A stretch of DNA of 14,939 nt from a phage: sequence record PX306536.1. One strand, written 5' to 3'. The position numbers and the translations under genes were made by a program. The notes beneath the pieces are model-generated. The model ran no database searches, had not been told where the DNA came from, and worked only from the letters and a program-made list of their open reading frames with translations. Positions 1 through 14,939 of the stretch are shown here, in pieces. Positions within the stretch are counted from its first letter, which is position 1, and each line of letters starts with the position of its first letter.

Positions 1-110
1 GGGGATACGTGCCCCTCCCCACCTACCCGCGCCCCTAACATTTTTATTTCCGTCTGTCAATACCCCCTGCATCCGATAGGCCCGAACTATCACAAACGGA
101 AAAGCGATAG
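1..110. repeat. Left inverted terminal repeat (110 bp), genome terminus starting GGGG
   Basis: Positions 1-110 are the exact reverse complement of 14830-14939; the match breaks at position 111 versus 14829. C-rich tracts and repeated GATAG/CTATC motifs lie inside. Confidence 0.95.
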
Positions 111-143: not shown

Positions 144-173
144 TTGTAAGCGCGTTTAAAATCATGGTAAAAT
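144..173 (+). promoter_or_regulatory. Candidate sigma70-like early promoter for the left early operon (VIII-I)
   Basis: TTGTAA (144-149), 18-nt spacer, TAAAAT (168-173), about 60 nt upstream of the gene VIII ATG at 233. Sequence inspection only. Confidence 0.35.
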
Positions 174-232: not shown

Positions 233-1012
233 ATGGCGAAGAAAAAACCAGTAGAAAAAAATGGGCTTGTTTATAAAGAGTTTCAAAAGCAAGTTTCAAA
301 TTTGAAGAAAGCCGGACTAATCCCTAAAACCCTTGACGTGCGAAAAGTCAAGCCAACAAAACACTATAAAGGATTGGTAAGCAAATATAAAGACGTTGCA
401 ACAGGGGGCGCTAAACTTGCAGCAATTCCTAACCCCGCCGTTATTGAAACGCTTGAAGCGCGGGGCGAATCCATCATTAAGAAAGGCGGCAAGGCATATC
501 TGAAAGCCCGCCAGCAAATAAACCAGCGCGGACAAATTGTAAACCCCTTTACGGTTCGCGTAACCAAACGCGGCGAAGTGGTGCGCCGCTACCGTAAGAC
601 TACCCCGGAAGGCAAGCCCGTTTATATCACGCAACGGGAATTGCCTATTAAGTTTGAGAATATGGAACAGTGGCTTACTGAATTAAAGGCCGCTGGTTTT
701 CAATTGCAACCGGGCGAACAAATCTATTTCACTTTTAACGGTAACTATTCCCGCCGTACCTATACGTCATTTGATGAAGCGTTCAATAAATTCATGACGT
801 ATGACATTATTATTGATGCGGTGGCCGGAAAATTAAAAGTAGAAGATGAAGCCGATTTAGTTAAGTCGGTAGGCTTTCAGCGTATCAGCGGCCCCGAAGC
901 CAAGGCGTATAACCGTAACCGTATTGTATTGCCTGAAATGCAATTTAGCCAAGCGGCTAAAAAGAAATACAAGCGCCGTCAAAAACGCGGCTATGGCAGC
1001 AAGGGGGTTTAA
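233..1012 (+). CDS. VIII: Genome terminal protein P8 (protein primer for DNA replication), 259 aa
   Basis: First ORF inside the left ITR, 259 aa, basic and Lys-rich; Tyr at residue 190 (codon 800-802, context FMTYD) matches the priming tyrosine recalled for PRD1 P8. RBS AAGG upstream. Confidence 0.9.
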   Translation: MAKKKPVEKNGLVYKEFQKQVSNLKKAGLIPKTLDVRKVKPTKHYKGLVSKYKDVATGGAKLAAIPNPAVIETLEARGESIIKKGGKAYLKARQQINQRGQIVNPFTVRVTKRGEVVRRYRKTTPEGKPVYITQRELPIKFENMEQWLTELKAAGFQLQPGEQIYFTFNGNYSRRTYTSFDEAFNKFMTYDIIIDAVAGKLKVEDEADLVKSVGFQRISGPEAKAYNRNRIVLPEMQFSQAAKKKYKRRQKRGYGSKGV

Positions 1013-1015
1013 TAT

Positions 1016-2677
1016 ATGCCGCGCCGTTCCCGTAAAAAGGTTGAATATAAAATTGCAGCCTTTGACTTTGAAACTGACCCTTTCAAGCATGACCGTATCC
1101 CTAAACCGTTTTCATGGGGTTTTTATAATGGTGAAATTTATAAAGACTATTGGGGCGATGATTGCATAGAACAGTTTATTTACTGGCTGGATACCATAGA
1201 AGAACCCCACGTCATATACGCGCATAACGGCGGCAAGTTTGATTTTCTTTTTCTCATGAAATACTTTCGCGGGAAATTGAAAATAGTTAATGGGCGTATT
1301 TTGGAAGTCGAACACGGTATCCATAAATTCCGCGATAGTTATGCAATCCTACCGGTGCCACTTGCTGCCAGCGATGAAAAGATAGAAATTGATTATGGCA
1401 AGATGGAAAGGGAAACCCGCGAACAGCACAAGGCGGAAATTTTAGAATACCTTAAAGGCGATTGTGTCACCTTGCATAAAATGGTTAGTTTGTTTATTGC
1501 TGAATTTGGAATGCGCCTAACCATAGGCGGTACGGCAATGAATGAATTAAAACAGTTCCACCCTTATGACCCGGTGCGCAAAGGCTTTGATGAAGCTATG
1601 CGCCCCTTTTATTTTGGTGGAAGGTGCCAAGCATTCGAGAAAGGAATAATAGAAGATGATATTAAAGTTTATGACGTTAATAGCATGTACCCCCATGCTA
1701 TGCGAAATTTCCGCCACCCTTTCAGCGATGAATTTTATGAAGCCGATGAAGTAACGGAAGAAACTTATTTTATTGAATGGGAAGGCGAGAATAACGGCGC
1801 GGTGCCAGTAAGGACTAAAACAGGATTAGACTTTAATCAGCGTAGCGGCATTTTCCATACGTCAATCCATGAATGGCAGGCGGGCATTGATACCGGCACG
1901 ATTAAACCTAATCGGATTATAAGGACAATCAATTTTACTGAAACAACCACTTTCGGCGCATTCATTGACCATTTCTTTAGCAAGCGTGACGCGGCCAAAA
2001 AGGCGGGCGATTTATTCCACAATATTTTTTACAAACTTATTTTAAATAGCAGTTATGGGAAGTTTGCGCAAAACCCCGAAAATTATAAAGAGTGGTGCAT
2101 AACGGAAGGCGGCATTTATTTAGAAGGCTATGACGGCGAAGGGTGCGAAGTACAGGAACATTTAGATTATATTTTATGGGGTAGGCCCGCTGAAATGTTT
2201 AATTATTTTAACGTGGCAGTGGCGGCAAGTATTACAGGCGCGGCCCGTTCCGTTTTATTGCGGGCATTGGCGCAAGCGGAAAGGCCGCTTTATTGTGACA
2301 CTGATTCTATTATTTGCCGTGATTTAAAAAATGTCCCGCTTGACGCATACCAGCTAGGCGCGTGGGATTTGGAAGCAACCGGCGATAAAATAGCGATTGC
2401 CGGTAAAAAATTATATGCGCTTTACGCTGGTGATAATTGCGTTAAAATTGCAAGTAAGGGGGCTAGTCTGGTTCCGCGTGATATTGGGTTTTTAATGCCC
2501 CCGGATATGGAACCGAAAGCCGCCAAAAAGGTAGCGCAACAAAAGGCTAAAAATATTGGTGGCGAGAAAATTTTAAAGGTGGCTAATGGCGGCGTGTATG
2601 ATTTTGTAAATGATGCCCCGTCATTTAAGCTAAATGGCAACGTGCAATTTATCAAGCGCACAATCAAAGGAACATAA
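1016..2677 (+). CDS. I: Protein-primed family B DNA polymerase P1, 553 aa
   Basis: Exo I FDFETD, Exo II YAHNGGKFDFLF, Exo III YLKGDCV; polymerase motif A DVNSMYPHAM, motif B KLILNSSYGKFAQ, motif C YCDTDS (2291-2308). RBS AAGGGGG at 1001-1007. Confidence 0.95.
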   Translation: MPRRSRKKVEYKIAAFDFETDPFKHDRIPKPFSWGFYNGEIYKDYWGDDCIEQFIYWLDTIEEPHVIYAHNGGKFDFLFLMKYFRGKLKIVNGRILEVEHGIHKFRDSYAILPVPLAASDEKIEIDYGKMERETREQHKAEILEYLKGDCVTLHKMVSLFIAEFGMRLTIGGTAMNELKQFHPYDPVRKGFDEAMRPFYFGGRCQAFEKGIIEDDIKVYDVNSMYPHAMRNFRHPFSDEFYEADEVTEETYFIEWEGENNGAVPVRTKTGLDFNQRSGIFHTSIHEWQAGIDTGTIKPNRIIRTINFTETTTFGAFIDHFFSKRDAAKKAGDLFHNIFYKLILNSSYGKFAQNPENYKEWCITEGGIYLEGYDGEGCEVQEHLDYILWGRPAEMFNYFNVAVAASITGAARSVLLRALAQAERPLYCDTDSIICRDLKNVPLDAYQLGAWDLEATGDKIAIAGKKLYALYAGDNCVKIASKGASLVPRDIGFLMPPDMEPKAAKKVAQQKAKNIGGEKILKVANGGVYDFVNDAPSFKLNGNVQFIKRTIKGT

Positions 2678-2678
2678 A

Positions 2679-3128
2679 ATGCAATATACACTTTGGGATA
2701 TTATCAGCCGCGTGGAAAGCAACGGGAATTTAAAAGCGTTGCGGTTTGAACCGGAATACTATCAGCGGCGCATGGCGCGGGGCGATTGGAATAATTCGAT
2801 TATTCAAAATATCCGCGCCGCCAATAAATGCAGCTTAGGCACTGCCCGCATGATTTATTGCAGTTCATGGGGCGCGGTTCAAATCATGGGATTTAATCTT
2901 TATTTGGACGGCGCATTTAATTTGAGCGTTGCGCATTTCATGGAAAATGAAGCGTATCAAGTAAATGAATTTCGGCGCTTCCTTTTGAAAAATGGATTAA
3001 CTGAATATACGCCTGAAAGGCTGGCGAGTGATAAAGCGGCCCGCGTTAAATTCGCCAAGGTTTATAACGGCGCTGAAAGTTACGCGGATTTAATTTTGCA
3101 AGCCTGCCAATTTTACGGGGTGAAATAA
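2679..3128 (+). CDS. XV: Soluble lytic enzyme P15 (muramidase-type endolysin), 149 aa
   Basis: ATG at 2679 preceded by RBS AAAGGA (2666-2671), immediately after the polymerase stop. The ORF track's upstream extension to 2634 overlaps the polymerase and lacks an RBS. Size matches PRD1 P15. Confidence 0.8.
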
Positions 3129-4903
3129 TGGCTAATTTCAACGTGCCTAAATTGGGCGTTTTTCCGGTTGCTGCCGTTTTCGATATTGACAACGTGCCGG
3201 AAGATTCCAGCGCAACGGGTAGCCGCTGGCTACCTTCAATTTATCAGGGCGGTAATTATTGGGGCGGTGGCCCGCAAGCGTTGCGCGTTCAGGTAAGCAA
3301 TTTTGATGCTACTAACCGCCTGCCCTATAACCCGCGCACTGAAAATAACCCGGCTGGAAATTGCGCTTTTGCGTTTAATCCTTTCGGTCAATATATTTCT
3401 AATATCAGTAGTGCGCAAAGTGTGCATAGGCGCATTTACGGAATCGACCTAAATGATGAACCGCTTTTCACGCCTAACGCTGCAAGCATTACAAACGGCG
3501 GCAATCCTACAATGTCGCAAGATTATGCTTATCACAATATCGGCCCGATTAATTCCGCGTATAAGGCCGAAATTTTCCGGCCTGTAAATCCGTTGCCAAT
3601 GAGTGATACAGCGCCTGACCCTGAAACATTGGAACCGGGGCAAACGGAACCGCTTATTAAATCCGATGGTATTTATTCAAATAGCGGTATTGCGTCATTT
3701 ATTTTTGATAGGCCCGTAACGGAACCTAACCCAAATTGGCCCCCGCTGCCCCCGCCTGTAATTCCAATTATTTACCCTACCCCCGCGCTAGGCATTGGCG
3801 CGGCGGCGGCGTATGGCTTTGGCTATCAAGTGACGGTTTATAGATGGGAAGAAATACCCGTTGAATTTATCGCTGACCCTGAAACCTGCCCCGCGCAACC
3901 GACAACGGATAAGGTAATAATCAGGACAACCGATTTAAACCCGGAAGGTTCGCCGTGCGCTTATGAAGCCGGAATTATTTTAGTTCGCCAAACGTCTAAC
4001 CCAATGAATGCGGTAGCGGGGCGGCTGGTTCCTTATGTTGAAGATATAGCGGTTGATATTTTCCTGACAGGGAAATTTTTCACGCTTAACCCGCCTTTGC
4101 GAATTACCAATAATTATTTTGCGGATGATGAAGTAAAAGAAAACACTGTCACCATAGGCAATTACACTACCACGCTTTCAAGCGCCTATTATGCAATGTT
4201 TAAAACTGACGGCTACGGCGGGGCCACTTGCTTTATAGCGTCTGGTGGTGCTGGTATTTCCGCGCTTGTTCAATTGCAAGATAATAGCGTTTTGGACGTG
4301 CTTTATTATTCGCTGCCGCTTTCATTGGGTGGAAGCAAAGCGGCAATTGATGAATGGGTGGCGAATAATTGCGGGCTTTTTCCTATGTCCGGTGGGCTGG
4401 ATAAAACCACGCTGCTAGAAATTCCGCGCCGTCAATTGGAAGCTATAACCCCGCAAGATGGGCCGGGGCAGGATGATTTATTTATTCTGGATGATTCCGG
4501 CGCGTATGCTAGTTTTTCATCCTTTATCGGTTTTCCTGAATCCGCCTATTATGTTGCAGGCGCTGCCACTTTTATGGACGTTGAAAACCCGGATGAAATT
4601 ATTTTTATCTTGCGAAATGGCGCGGGCTGGTATGCTTGCGAAATTGGCGATGCGTTAAAAATTGCGGATGATGAATTTGATTCCGTGGATTATTTCGCGT
4701 ATCGCGGGGGCGTTATGTTTATTGGTTCGGCGCGTTATACCGAAGGGGGCGACCCGCTACCCATTAAATATAGGGCGATTATTCCAGCGTTGCCGCGTGG
4801 GCGTTTGCCGCGTGTAGTGTTAGAATATCAAGCGGTGGGAATGTCGTTTATTCCTTGTCAAACGCATTGCCTTGGCAAAGGCGGAATTATTTCAAAGGTG
4901 TAA
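3128..4903 (+). CDS. II: Receptor-binding (adsorption) protein P2, 591 aa
   Basis: 591-aa ORF, start overlaps the XV stop (TAATG); position and size match PRD1 P2. Confidence 0.85.
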
Positions 4904-4906
4904 ATT

Positions 4907-5287
4907 ATGAATGTGAATAATCCCAATCAAATGACGGTAACGCCTGTTTATAACGGTTGCGATTCCGGCGAAGGCCCGCAAAGTGTGCGCGGTTACTTTG
5001 ACGCGGTAGCGGGCGAGAATATCAAGTTTGATATGACTTATCTTGCCGATACGCAAGGCTTTACCGGCGTTCAATGTATCTATATTGATAACGCGGAAAA
5101 TGACGGCGCGTTTGAAATTGACGTTGAAGAAACGGGCCAGCGGATTAAATGCCCTGCCGGTAAGCAAGGCTATTTTCCTTTGCTGGTTCCGGGCCGTGCT
5201 AAATTTGTGGCGCGTCATTTGGGCAGCGGCAAAAAATCGGTGCCTTTGTTTTTCCTTAACTTCACTATTGCGCAAGGGGTTTGGTAA
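4907..5287 (+). CDS. XXXI: Penton (vertex base) protein P31, 126 aa
   Basis: 126 aa, RBS AAAGGTG upstream; paralogous to the N-terminal domain of the next ORF (TGQRIxxxAGxQGYxP...F[LI]NFxIAxGVW). Confidence 0.85.
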   Translation: MNVNNPNQMTVTPVYNGCDSGEGPQSVRGYFDAVAGENIKFDMTYLADTQGFTGVQCIYIDNAENDGAFEIDVEETGQRIKCPAGKQGYFPLLVPGRAKFVARHLGSGKKSVPLFFLNFTIAQGVW

Positions 5288-6309
5288 TGGCTAATCAACA
5301 AATTGGCGGTAGCACGGTAACTTATAACGGCGCTATCCCTATGGGTGGCCCGGTGGCAATTAATACCGTTATTGAAATTGCAGGCACGGAAGTTTTAGTT
5401 GATTTAAAACTTGACTATGCAACCGGCAAAATTTCGGGCGTTCAAACTCTTTATATCGACTTGCGCGATTTTTTGGGTGACGTAACCGTGACCATGCCGG
5501 ACACCGGGCAGCGCATTACGGCGCGGGCAGGTACGCAAGGTTATTACCCGGTGCTATCCACTAACCTTATGAAATTCATTGTATCCGCCACTATTGACGG
5601 AAAATTCCCAATGAATTTTATTAACTTCCCTATTGCGCTTGGCGTATGGCCTAGCGGAATTAAAGGCGATAAAGGCGACCCCGGCGCACCCGGCCCCGCT
5701 GGTGGTACGGTTGTTGTTGAAGATTCCGGCGCGTCATCTGGTGAAAGCCTGCTAGACACTACCAGCGAACCGGGCAAAATTCTGGTTAAACGAATTTCGG
5801 CGGGCAGCGGAATTACCGTTACTGATTATGGCGATGAAGTGGAAATTGAAGCCAGCGGCGGCGGTGGTGGCGGTGGCGGTGTAACTGATGCGCTTTCATT
5901 AATGTATTCGACCAGTACGGGCGGGCCTGCAAGTATTGCGGCCAATGCGCTTACTGATTTTGATTTGTCCGGGGCGCTGACTGTAAATAGCGTGGGAACT
6001 GGTTTGACAAAATCAGCCGCTGGCATTCAATTAGCGGCGGGTAAATCCGGGCTTTATCAAATTACCATGACGGTAAAAAATAATACCGTGACAGCGGGAA
6101 ATTATTTATTGCGCGTTAAATACGGTAGTAGTGAATTTGTAGCGGCCTGCCCCGCCAGTAGCCTGACCGCTGGCGGTACAATTTCACTACTGATTTATTG
6201 CAACGTGTTAGGCGTTCCAAGCCTTGACGTGCTAAAATTCAGTTTGTGTAATAGCGGGGCGGCGCTTAGTAATTACATTATTAATATCACTGCCGCGAAA
6301 ATTAATTAA
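5287..6309 (+). CDS. V: Vertex spike protein P5, 340 aa, with P31-like N-domain, collagen-like Gly-X-Y stretch and Gly8 hinge
   Basis: ATG at 5287 overlaps the XXXI stop (TAATG); the track's 5281 start is a TTG. N-domain similar to P31; GIKGDKGDPGAPGPAGG at 5656-5706; Gly8 at 5857-5880. Confidence 0.88.
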   Translation: MANQQIGGSTVTYNGAIPMGGPVAINTVIEIAGTEVLVDLKLDYATGKISGVQTLYIDLRDFLGDVTVTMPDTGQRITARAGTQGYYPVLSTNLMKFIVSATIDGKFPMNFINFPIALGVWPSGIKGDKGDPGAPGPAGGTVVVEDSGASSGESLLDTTSEPGKILVKRISAGSGITVTDYGDEVEIEASGGGGGGGGVTDALSLMYSTSTGGPASIAANALTDFDLSGALTVNSVGTGLTKSAAGIQLAAGKSGLYQITMTVKNNTVTAGNYLLRVKYGSSEFVAACPASSLTAGGTISLLIYCNVLGVPSLDVLKFSLCNSGAALSNYIINITAAKIN

Positions 6310-7640: not shown

Positions 7641-8320
7641 CAATACGAATGCCAAACGATAGACAACGTATTCTAGTGCTAGGCAAAACCGGCACCGGGA
7701 AAACTTGCGCCGCCGTTTGGCATTTATCCCAAAAGGATTTTAAGCGCAAGGCGTGGATTGTCCTAAACCATAAGGGCGATGATTTAATTGATTCCATTGA
7801 AGGGGCTAACCATGTAGATTTAAATTTTCGACCTAAAAAACCGGGGCTTTATATTTACCATCCTATCCCTGATGTTGATGATGCGGAAGTAACGCAATTG
7901 CTTTGGGATATTCACGCGATGGGCGATATTGGCGTTTATGTTGATGAAGGGTACATGATTCCAAACCGTGACCCGGCATTTCAGGCGCTACTTACTCAAG
8001 GCCGGAGTAAGAAAATCCCGATGATTATTTTAAGCCAGCGGCCCGTATGGCTTACCCGCTTTGCCATTTCGGAATCGGATTTTTTCCAGATATTCCAATT
8101 AGGCGACCAGCGCGATAGGCAAACCGTGCAAGGTTTTGTTCCGGTGGATTTGGAAAAATTAATGCAAGCGCCTGTAAATACAGTGCCAGCATTAAAAAAA
8201 TTCCATTCAATTTATTATGACGTGGGCGCTAATAATTGCGTTATAATGACACCGGTTCCTACCGCTGACGCCGTTTTGGCCCGGTTCGACCTTGGCAAGA
8301 AAAGAAAGCAAACCCTGTAA
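7637..8320 (+). CDS. IX: DNA packaging ATPase P9, 227 aa
   Basis: Walker A GKTGTGKT (7682-7705) and Walker B-like IGVYVDEG; ATGA overlap with the gene X stop. Confidence 0.92.
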   Translation: MTIRMPNDRQRILVLGKTGTGKTCAAVWHLSQKDFKRKAWIVLNHKGDDLIDSIEGANHVDLNFRPKKPGLYIYHPIPDVDDAEVTQLLWDIHAMGDIGVYVDEGYMIPNRDPAFQALLTQGRSKKIPMIILSQRPVWLTRFAISESDFFQIFQLGDQRDRQTVQGFVPVDLEKLMQAPVNTVPALKKFHSIYYDVGANNCVIMTPVPTADAVLARFDLGKKRKQTL

Positions 8321-8331
8321 AGGAAAACGCT

Positions 8332-8460
8332 ATGACTGAAAATATCATTAGTTGGAATGTCGCCAATTGGGTGACAGTAATTTTAATGGCGCTTGCCGGT
8401 TATGCGGTGCTGGCTTTAGCTGCCAAGGTAATTAACAACCGCGCACAGGAACCGGCATAA
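8332..8460 (+). CDS. XX: Small single-pass membrane protein, 42 aa, P20-like (packaging vertex)
   Basis: ATG at 8332 with RBS AAGGA; one hydrophobic helix (NWVTVILMALAGYAVLALAA); size matches PRD1 P20. Confidence 0.65.
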   Translation: MTENIISWNVANWVTVILMALAGYAVLALAAKVINNRAQEPA

Positions 8461-8588
8461 TGGTTAATTGGGAATTGTTGAAAAACCCCATTAATTGGCT
8501 TATCGTCATTCTCATGCTGACCATTGCAGGAATGGCGGCTACCCTTGTTTGTAACCACTTCGGCAAAAATGCCGTCACTTCGGAGTAA
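8460..8588 (+). CDS. Small single-pass membrane protein, 42 aa, tandem paralog of the preceding ORF (could correspond to P22 or an unnamed ORF)
   Basis: TAATG overlap with the preceding ORF; shares the NW-x-x-VILM transmembrane pattern with it. Confidence 0.55.
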   Translation: MVNWELLKNPINWLIVILMLTIAGMAATLVCNHFGKNAVTSE

Positions 8589-8594
8589 TTAAAT

Positions 8595-9782
8595 ATGGCA
8601 CAGGTTCAACAACTGACCCCCGCTCAACAGGCGGCATTGCGCAATCAGCAGGCTATGGCGGCAAACTTGCAGGCCCGTCAAATTGTCCTGCAACAGTCTT
8701 ACCCTGTTATCCAGCAGGTTGAAACGCAAACTTTCGACCCGGCTAACCGTTCCGTGTTTGACGTGACCCCGGCGAACGTGGGCATTGTCAAAGGCTTTTT
8801 GGTGAAGGTAACGGCGGCTATCAAAAATAACCACGCTACCGAAGCGGTGGCCCTTACTGACTTCGGCCCGGCTAACCTTGTTCAACGTGTCATTTATTAT
8901 GACCCGGACAACCAGCGCCACACTGAAACCAGCGGCTGGCATTTGCATTTTGTGAATACCGCCAAACAAGGTGCGCCGTTCCTTTCCAGCATGGTAACGG
9001 ATTCGCCCATTAAGTACGGCGATGTTATGAACGTCATTGATGCCCCGGCAACTATTGCGGCGGGCGCTACTGGCGAACTGACCATGTACTATTGGGTTCC
9101 GCTTGCCTATTCCGAAACCGATTTGACCGGGGCGGTTTTGGCGAACGTGCCGCAAAGTAAGCAGCGCCTGAAACTGGAATTTGCGAACAACAATACCGCC
9201 TTTGCGGCGGTGGGCGCTAATCCGCTGGAAGCGATTTATCAGGGCGCGGGCGCGGCTGATTGCGAGTTTGAAGAAATTTCTTACACCGTTTATCAGTCTT
9301 ACCTTGACCAACTGCCGGTAGGCCAGAACGGTTATATCCTGCCGCTGATTGACCTTTCCACTTTGTACAATCTGGAAAACAGCGCACAGGCAGGGCTTAC
9401 CCCTAACGTGGATTTTGTGGTGCAGTATGCAAACCTGTATCGCTACCTTTCCACAATCGCGGTATTCGATAACGGCGGCAGCTTCAATGCTGGCACCGAT
9501 ATTAACTACCTTAGCCAGCGCACGGCTAACTTTTCGGATACCCGGAAACTTGACCCGAAAACGTGGGCCGCGCAAACTCGCCGCCGTATCGCTACCGATT
9601 TTCCGAAGGGCGTTTATTATTGCGACAACCGCGATAAGCCGATTTACACCCTTCAATATGGTAACGTGGGCTTTGTCGTGAATCCTAAAACGGTCAATCA
9701 AAATGCCCGTTTGCTGATGGGTTACGAATACTTCACCAGCCGCACCGAACTGGTGAATGCTGGCACCATTTCCACCACTTAA
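8595..9782 (+). CDS. III: Major capsid protein P3 (double jelly-roll), 395 aa
   Basis: 395-aa ORF beginning MAQVQQLTPAQQAAL, which matches my recollection of the PRD1 P3 N-terminus; correct size and position. Confidence 0.95.
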   Translation: MAQVQQLTPAQQAALRNQQAMAANLQARQIVLQQSYPVIQQVETQTFDPANRSVFDVTPANVGIVKGFLVKVTAAIKNNHATEAVALTDFGPANLVQRVIYYDPDNQRHTETSGWHLHFVNTAKQGAPFLSSMVTDSPIKYGDVMNVIDAPATIAAGATGELTMYYWVPLAYSETDLTGAVLANVPQSKQRLKLEFANNNTAFAAVGANPLEAIYQGAGAADCEFEEISYTVYQSYLDQLPVGQNGYILPLIDLSTLYNLENSAQAGLTPNVDFVVQYANLYRYLSTIAVFDNGGSFNAGTDINYLSQRTANFSDTRKLDPKTWAAQTRRRIATDFPKGVYYCDNRDKPIYTLQYGNVGFVVNPKTVNQNARLLMGYEYFTSRTELVNAGTISTT

Positions 9783-9800
9783 TAAAGGGGGCATTCCGCC

Positions 9801-11835: not shown

Positions 11836-12189
11836 ATGGACAAAAAGAAATTGCTTTATTGGGTGGGCGGCGGGCTGGTGCTGATTCTTATCTGGCTTTG
11901 GTTCCGCAATCGACCAGCCGCGCAAGTGGCAAGCAATTGGGAAGGCCCGCCGTATATGACGTATAACCAGCCGCAAGCCGGTAGCGTCACCCTGCCGGTG
12001 GCTGGCTATACTTCGCCTTCCCTGACACTGCCGAACCGCAACCGTTCATGCGGTTGTAACCCGGCAGTATCGGCAGCAATGGCACAGGGCGCGGATTTGG
12101 CAAGTAAATTGACTGAAAGCATTTCCAGCCAGCTTAATAACTATGCCGAAAGTCTTAATGATTATTTGGCTTCACAAGCGGGGGTTTAA
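11836..12189 (+). CDS. XVI: Vertex-membrane linker / infectivity protein P16, 117 aa
   Basis: RBS AAGGGG; N-terminal transmembrane helix; size matches PRD1 P16. Confidence 0.75.
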   Translation: MDKKKLLYWVGGGLVLILIWLWFRNRPAAQVASNWEGPPYMTYNQPQAGSVTLPVAGYTSPSLTLPNRNRSCGCNPAVSAAMAQGADLASKLTESISSQLNNYAESLNDYLASQAGV

Positions 12190-12999
12190 ATGGCTGGTGC
12201 GCTGCAATGGTGGGAAACTATCGGCGCGGCTTCGGCGCAATATAACCTTGACCCGCGCCTAGTGGCCGGGGTTGTCCAAACGGAATCATCCGGCAACCCC
12301 CGCGCCATTTCAGGCGCGGGCGCTATGGGTTTAATGCAGCTTATGCCAGCGACCGCCAAAAGTTTAGGCGTAACAAACGCCTATGACCCTACACAAAACA
12401 TTTATGGTGGCGCGGCCCTTTTGCGTGAAAACCTTGATAGATACGGCGATGTTAATACGGCGTTGCTTGCTTATCACGGCGGAACTAATCAAGCAAATTG
12501 GGGCGCTAAAACAAAATCTTATCCGGGTAAGGTTATGGAAAATATCAATTTGCTTTTCGGTAATAGCGGCCCGGTAGTAACGCCAGCGGCAGGAATTGCG
12601 CCAGTATCCGGGGCGCAAGAAATGACCGCCGTTAATATCAGCGACTATACCGCGCCTGATTTAACGGGGCTTACTATGGGGGCGGGTAGTCCTGAATTTA
12701 CAGGCGGGGCTAGTGGTTCATGGGGCGAAGAAACGCCAGAAGAAAACGTGCCGTGGTATCGCGTAGATAAGCACGTTGCGAACGCGGCGGGTTCCGCTTA
12801 TGACGCGGTGGCAGGGGCAGTAAGCGCACCAGTGGAAGCGGCAGGAAACTACGCCTTGCGGGGCGTGGTAATTATTGCGGCGGTGGCAATTGTTGTTGTT
12901 GGTTTGTACTTCCTTTTTCAAGATGAAATTAACAGCGCCGCCATGAAGATGATTCCAGCCGGTAAGGCGGCAGGGGCAGCGGCTAAGGCAATGTCATGA
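12190..12999 (+). CDS. VII: Virion lytic transglycosylase P7 (SLT domain) with C-terminal membrane anchor, 269 aa; C-terminal portion may also be made as P14
   Basis: SLT catalytic signature VVQTESSGNPRAISGAGAMGLMQLMPATA; C-terminal transmembrane helix VVIIAAVAIVVVGLYFLF. Confidence 0.9.
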   Translation: MAGALQWWETIGAASAQYNLDPRLVAGVVQTESSGNPRAISGAGAMGLMQLMPATAKSLGVTNAYDPTQNIYGGAALLRENLDRYGDVNTALLAYHGGTNQANWGAKTKSYPGKVMENINLLFGNSGPVVTPAAGIAPVSGAQEMTAVNISDYTAPDLTGLTMGAGSPEFTGGASGSWGEETPEENVPWYRVDKHVANAAGSAYDAVAGAVSAPVEAAGNYALRGVVIIAAVAIVVVGLYFLFQDEINSAAMKMIPAGKAAGAAAKAMS

Positions 13000-13349
13000 T
13001 GGGAAATGATGAATGGTGGAAGTATCTAATTTTTCCGCTAGTGGCTACGCTTGGCGGAATTGTCAATTACTCAAAAAGGGCGCTTGCCATGAAACGCTTT
13101 TCTAAACTTGAATTTGCGGTTGAAGCGGTAAGCGCCGCGTTTGTGGGCTTGATGGTAACGCTAGGCGGGGCGGCTATGGATTTATCGCCGCACTGGCTAG
13201 GCATGGCGGCGGGAATGTCTGGATGGATGGGCGCGGATTTTGTCAAGGCGGTTTTCTCGCAATTTGTGCAAAGCAAGATTGGCCCTATCAATCAGCCGGG
13301 GCCGATAGATTCCGACAATGACAAGCCGGGGCGAACCTTCAATGATTAA
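12996..13349 (+). CDS. XXXV: Holin P35, 117 aa
   Basis: Multiple hydrophobic helices with a charged C-terminus, located directly upstream of a spanin pair; ATGTCATGATG overlap with the VII stop. Confidence 0.8.
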   Translation: MMGNDEWWKYLIFPLVATLGGIVNYSKRALAMKRFSKLEFAVEAVSAAFVGLMVTLGGAAMDLSPHWLGMAAGMSGWMGADFVKAVFSQFVQSKIGPINQPGPIDSDNDKPGRTFND

Positions 13350-14829: not shown

Positions 14830-14939
14830 CTATCGCTTTTCCGTTTGTGATAGTTCGGGCCTATCGGATGCAGGGGGTATTGACAGACGGAAATAAAAAT
14901 GTTAGGGGCGCGGGTAGGTGGGGAGGGGCACGTATCCCC
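14830..14939. repeat. Right inverted terminal repeat (110 bp), genome terminus ending CCCC
   Basis: Exact reverse complement of positions 1-110. Confidence 0.95.

Follow-up and report, generated by a model that had tools for sequence, protein, structure and literature searches.

Protein-primed replication of phage PRD1 has been in the literature since 1991-1993, and its terminal protein P8, its DNA polymerase P1, the priming residue Tyr190 and sliding-back on the 3'-CCCC template ends are all already known from there. Tyr190 was mapped experimentally as the residue linking P8 to the DNA through a phosphodiester bond to the 5' dGMP (Shiue 1991, as related in later papers), and initiation in vitro is described as taking place at the fourth nucleotide of 3'-CCCC and as leading to sliding-back in three steps (PMC5175343 and PMC4974454, citing Caldentey et al. 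1993). On PRD1 DNA carrying the terminal protein (TP-DNA), dGMP is the initiating nucleotide, and the polymerase carries out strand displacement and yields full-length DNA with purified proteins. The terminal proteins of adenovirids and PRD1 are regarded as homologous by structural modelling, with the linking residues, Tyr190 and Ser580, occupying equivalent places in a loop (PMC11161782). Here we analysed a phage DNA of 14,939 bp (sequence record PX306536.1), the whole of which is called the window, and specifically its positions 233-2677, which a reading of the sequence alone had taken for a protein-primed replication module with a priming tyrosine at residue 190 and a terminal GGGG.

The gene pair at 233-2677 and its relation to PRD1

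The first gene of the pair (233..1012, + strand) corresponds to PRD1 gene VIII and encodes a terminal protein of 259 amino acids with 100% identity to PRD1 P8, the two genes differing by 9 nucleotides, all of them synonymous. The second gene (1016..2677, + strand) corresponds to PRD1 gene I and encodes a protein-primed family B DNA polymerase, P1, of 553 amino acids, of which 3/553 differ from PRD1 (N244D, I246V and R288Q, from PRD1 to the window; 99.5% identity). The records of PRD1 and of Burkholderia phage vB_Bco-CSP1 (hereafter CSP1) annotate the homologous gene as terminal protein, and its homology to P8, its position immediately upstream of the polymerase gene and the conserved tyrosine at the linking position are all those of a PRD1-type terminal protein. 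No similarity to phi29 p3 was found in the protein, either in sequence or in fold, and the sole Pfam match, to an MCM8 winged-helix domain, was set aside as noise, its 16.9 bits falling below the cut-off of 26. In the PRD1 GenBank record AY848689 the terminal-protein gene (233-1012) is labelled 'XIII' with the product note P8, which looks like an annotation slip given that the literature calls it gene VIII.

The likeness extends over the entire genome, as PRD1 (AY848689, NC_001421) aligns with the window in one piece covering 100% of its length, with 97.5% identity and 368 nucleotide differences genome-wide (~2.5%), and the open reading frames (ORFs) of the window lie at the coordinates annotated for PRD1 in a collinear gene order. 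This order and the high nucleotide identity are those expected within Alphatectivirus, as is the genome itself, which with 14,939 bp and inverted terminal repeats (ITRs) of 110 bp belongs to the class of linear double-stranded DNAs of ~14.9 kb with ~110-bp ITRs. CSP1 matched the window at 97.9% identity over its full length and Salmonella phage PKJ.Vi.20.1 at 98.2% identity with 99% coverage; none of the 78 alphatectivirus matches in the phage collection (August 2025 release) was identical, the best reaching 97.9-98.2%, and the window is thus an alphatectivirus variant not represented there. The perfect 110-bp ITR, the identity of nt 1-232 to PRD1 and the collinearity together indicate that this PRD1-like genome is complete and that its ends are true. 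The window is therefore an alphatectivirus genome of the PRD1 species group, linear and complete, and at the level of the isolate a new variant within a known species.

We read 233-2677 as the left early operon of such a PRD1-group alphatectivirus, encoding P8 and the protein-primed family B polymerase P1 and replicating as PRD1 does, with a probability of roughly 0.96. No sequence feature arguing against a PRD1-type reading was found in the window. Since the window as a whole is so nearly identical to and collinear with PRD1, the features observed are not due to chance, and because its biology is that of PRD1, the module had been read correctly, with the priming Tyr190 and the sliding-back arrangement matching what is established for that phage. 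The finding is real and rightly interpreted, but it recognises a system already described and infers nothing new. Its value is confirmatory, as it puts on a firm footing the annotation of the window as a full alphatectivirus genome whose ends are the true ones.

The polymerase matches Pfam DNA_pol_B_2 (E=2e-80), and its motifs were located by pattern mapping beside the phi29 polymerase. The 3'-5' exonuclease motifs, placed by this mapping and by an alignment of 121 homologues, span 1064..1462 (+ strand) and comprise Exo I D17-x-E19 (1064-1072, +), Exo II N71..D76 (1226-1243, +) and Exo III Y145..D149 (1448-1462, +). Motif A D220VNSMYP (1673..1693, +), motif B K340LILNSSYG (2033..2059, +) and motif C Y426CDTDS (2291..2308, +) were each recovered by pattern, alignment and hhalign, and YxGG, Tx2AR and KxY were placed at Y199, T407 and K465, respectively. 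The polymerase of only 553 residues (ORF 1016-2677) thus holds every exonuclease and polymerase motif that had been ascribed to it, and with Exo I, II and III and motifs A, B and C it carries the full set of a protein-primed family B polymerase (pPolB). The catalytic residues, including D17, E19, N71, D76, Y145 and D149, are invariant across the 121 homologues, which are 46-95% identical.

The AlphaFold2 (AF2) model of the polymerase, built with 121 sequences, has a predicted local distance difference test score (pLDDT) of 95.1. Its best PDB matches by Foldseek are the phi29 DNA polymerase structures 2pzs, 1xhx and 2ex3 (E ~1e-24, template modelling score (TM) 0.69-0.71, full length), whereas RNA/DNA-primed family B polymerases without TPR insertions reach a TM of only ~0.40. 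A profile alignment to the phi29 polymerase by hhalign (probability 99.4%) covers both TPR1 and TPR2, and segments were assigned using the coordinates of these two insertions in the phi29 structures. The TPR1-equivalent segment lies between motifs A and B (~residues 232-315; 1709..1960, + strand), is aligned with phi29 residues 261-358 and in the model is beta-rich with one helix, H284-293. The TPR2-equivalent segment lies between motif B and Tx2AR (~residues 355-395; 2078..2200, + strand), is aligned with phi29 residues 398-420 and is modelled as beta-hairpins with strands at 358-364, 378-381 and 385-391; the hhalign boundaries of both are approximate. The model thus shows a predicted phi29-like fold with TPR1- and TPR2-equivalent segments, so that the insertions anticipated in the sequence-only reading are found on alignment. 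Deoxynucleotidylation of the terminal protein, an activity of PRD1 P1, may likewise be expected of the window polymerase through their 99.5% identity.

Genome ends and the proposed initiation mechanism

The window starts with 5'-GGGGATACG and ends with ...CGTATCCCC-3', both lying within the perfect 110-bp ITR. The left ITR (1..110), a replication origin which the CSP1 record annotates as repeat_region 1-110, is repeated without mismatch in the right ITR (14830..14939), the second origin, where the + strand ends in CCCC-3'. Both strands start with 5'-GGGGATACGTGCCCC, of which the terminal 5'-GGGG forms nt 1-4, and each template strand consequently ends in 3'-CCCC, in agreement with what had been proposed for the genome ends. 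The repeated identical nucleotides that sliding-back needs at the 3' end of the template are thus present at both ends.

The 3'-CCCC end is also kept in L003, a PR4-like genome, and a more divergent contig, L008 (Logan SRR13292359, polymerase 73% identical), starts with GGGGATACG as well, its longer start being 5'-GGGGATACGG, from which it follows that the G4 end is conserved beyond the PRD1 species. With this start the contig probably reaches the true end of the genome of an alphatectivirus-like phage that is divergent from PRD1. Its nt 1-19, GGGGATACGGTGTATCCCC, form a near-palindrome (GGGGATAC / GTATCCCC), of which the first 9 nt are common with PRD1.

The near-identity to PRD1 allows the mechanism known from PRD1 experiments to be transferred to the window, and from that literature we infer for the window phage that P8 is linked covalently, that initiation uses position 4 and that sliding-back follows. 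Replication would begin with the free P8-P1 heterodimer binding the origin in the 110-bp ITR, where P1 would link dGMP to the hydroxyl of P8 Tyr190 with the fourth C of 3'-CCCC as template. The P8-dGMP product would then slide back stepwise, in three one-nucleotide steps, recovering the terminal bases. P1 would subsequently elongate processively with strand displacement, assisted by P12 and P19, whose genes lie at the right end, and P8 would remain covalently attached to each 5' end.

Initiation could instead take place opposite the first template base and without sliding-back, the GGGG being an origin recognition sequence only, and the sequence itself provides a homopolymer of 4 nt at each end and not the templating position. 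However, PRD1, whose ends are identical, initiates in vitro at the fourth nucleotide and slides back three times, and the homopolymeric end needed for this persists in the divergent L008. We consider a start at position 1 improbable in view of these observations, although it is the alternative that survives best.

Tyr190 and its conservation among distant terminal proteins

The 259-residue ORF at 233-1012 has a tyrosine at residue 190, encoded by TAT at 800..802 (+ strand) exactly where the sequence-only reading had placed it, and this is assigned as the DNA-linking (priming) residue on the strength of its conservation and of its mapping in PRD1, with whose priming residue it aligns trivially. 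It is one of 13 tyrosines in P8, and in the AF2 model of the protein (pLDDT 88.7) it lies at a break between the helices 180-187 and 191-197. Neither a tblastn search of the phage collection with the terminal protein nor a scan of IMG/VR returned relatives below 93% identity. As all terminal proteins from these sources are at least 93% identical and hence uninformative on Tyr190, an exhaustive HMMER search was used.

Run exhaustively against 1.84 billion cluster representatives, phmmer recovered 85 terminal-protein relatives of 24-57% identity, 58 of which reach the C-terminal half and were aligned with the query. Tyr190 is the sole invariant column in this alignment of distant homologues with 20-56% identity (59/59), and Y177, which comes second among the tyrosines in conservation, is Tyr in 19/59 and Phe in 39/59. 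When all matches and the query are aligned, the column holds Tyr in 82/86, and among the 4 exceptions 2 have a Tyr 1-4 residues away, suggestive of a shifted alignment, and 2 have none. The tyrosine is kept, too, in 5 divergent metagenomic tectivirus contigs (polymerases 52-80% identical), in which the terminal-protein gene lies directly upstream of the polymerase gene. The invariance of Tyr190 is an independent corroboration, drawn from sequence only, of a priming residue that was mapped biochemically, and what it adds to the literature is that, over a large family of PRD1-type terminal proteins from metagenomes, no residue but Tyr190 is invariant.

Priming by a protein could also hold with the DNA linked in this isolate to another tyrosine, a serine or a threonine, for which the 13 tyrosines offer candidates, the covalent bond itself not being readable from the sequence. 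But the amino-acid sequence is that of PRD1 P8, where the link was mapped to Tyr190 by experiment, and no other tyrosine is conserved, the best of them, Y177, being mostly replaced by Phe, which is incapable of linking. A different linking residue is therefore even less likely than a start at position 1. That the window is not full-length, its ends being artefacts of assembly or trimming and its terminal GGGG unreliable, is the least likely alternative and was rejected, for although many related records lack true ends and the PRD-colour and PKJ genomes align from ~10 to 110 nt inside the window, both ends are the experimentally determined PRD1 ends base for base and are also those of CSP1 and the PR4-like records, and the ITR is perfect over 110 bp and matches the annotation in relatives. 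Taken jointly, the three alternatives account for a very small share of the probability, all being contradicted by the conservation data as well as by the identity to PRD1, whose system has been characterised experimentally.

Two observations nevertheless call for caution in reading 233-2677 as a module that works just as in PRD1. Two of the 86 aligned terminal proteins, P0135 and P0166, are without a Tyr near the aligned position, and the residues in which the polymerase departs from PRD1, D244, V246 and Q288 (window 1745-1879), all lie inside the TPR1-equivalent segment. In phi29 the TPR1 subdomain contacts the terminal protein. By analogy, D244, V246 and Q288 might slightly alter the interaction between polymerase and terminal protein or the efficiency of initiation while P8 stays invariant, to which we give only a slim chance.

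Other genes of the window and comparison with known systems

The accessory replication genes lie outside 233-2677 and belong to the right early operon, namely gene XIX for the single-stranded DNA-binding protein P19 (13860..14144, - strand; 1 amino-acid difference from PRD1) and gene XII for the single-stranded DNA-binding protein P12 (14217..14699, - strand; 2 amino-acid differences), both assigned from the PRD1 annotation. Upstream of the terminal-protein gene, a consensus scan gave a candidate sigma-70-like promoter (144..173, + strand; TTGTAA-18-TAAAAT with an extended -10 TG), which by its position may serve the terminal-protein/polymerase early operon; the number of sites from the promoter and terminator scan of 1-2800 was not above that of shuffled sequence. 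The muramidase P15 frame (2634-3128) starts in the ORF list at ATG 2634 and overlaps the end of the polymerase gene. The annotated start of P15 in PRD1 and CSP1 is 2679, and a gene call on L007, a metagenomic contig, uses the longer form of 164 amino acids.

The differences from PRD1 are clustered in window 4501-6000 and 12001-13000, corresponding to the C-terminal part of P2, the penton P31, the spike P5 and the transglycosylase P7/P14. The receptor-binding protein P2 carries 16 amino-acid changes and the spike P5 carries 8, and the capsid and packaging region at 8001-9000 is nearly unchanged. Gene VII/XIV (P7/P14) has a 12-nt insertion, GAAGAAACGCCA, at window 12727-12738, present in CSP1 as well, which accounts for 4 amino acids, P7 having 269 in the window vs 265 in PRD1.

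An antisense ORF of 401 amino acids (8589-9794, - strand), which is codon-aligned across the whole P3 major capsid gene (8595-9782, + strand), is open also in PRD1 and CSP1. The P3 gene has 0 TTA, CTA or TCA among its 395 codons, with 11.7 expected from their share of 3.0% in the other genes (P ~7e-6). In L006 and L008, with 20 such codons, the antisense frame is broken and its longest runs are 54-87 amino acids. The antisense ORF was rejected as a gene since it is not kept in these relatives, whose polymerases are 73-80% identical, and codon bias or usage probably accounts for it.

Searching with the polymerase returned 4,215 proteins at E <= 1e-10, which points to a large uncharacterised diversity of PRD1-like elements in metagenomes. 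Two contigs of 15-17 kb, L010 and L011, are more distant PRD1-like elements with polymerases ~52-56% identical, and their terminal-protein/polymerase pair (9085-11557 in L010, 9081-11623 in L011) lies in the middle of the genome and is transcribed in a direction diverging from the structural genes, whereas that of PRD1 lies at the left end.

Among the described systems PRD1 is the nearest to the window, sharing its genome length class, its gene order, the length and sequence of its ITRs, its first 232 nt, an identical P8 and a 99.5% identical P1, with Tyr190 and the GGGG ends common to both. The two are distinguished by the 3 substitutions in P1, the 12-nt insertion in gene VII/XIV and ~2.5% of nucleotides. 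The phi29 polymerase, named p2, resembles that of the window in having an exonuclease domain, palm, fingers, thumb, TPR1 and TPR2 (TM ~0.70), and phi29 replication involves internal initiation followed by sliding-back as in PRD1, with p3 as the terminal protein and Ser232 as its linking residue. In Bam35, a member of Betatectivirus, the terminal-protein gene likewise adjoins the polymerase gene and the priming residue is a tyrosine, Y194, at a comparable position, the two terminal proteins being similar in size. Unlike PRD1, however, Bam35 initiates at the third base with dTMP as the first nucleotide and restores the end by jumping back a single nucleotide, and the terminal-protein sequences of the two are reported to be poorly conserved. 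Adenovirus initiates at position 4 like PRD1, but differs from it in having a linking Ser, a trinucleotide jump-back, a terminal protein (pTP) that is processed by a protease and a requirement for a DNA-binding protein in strand displacement.
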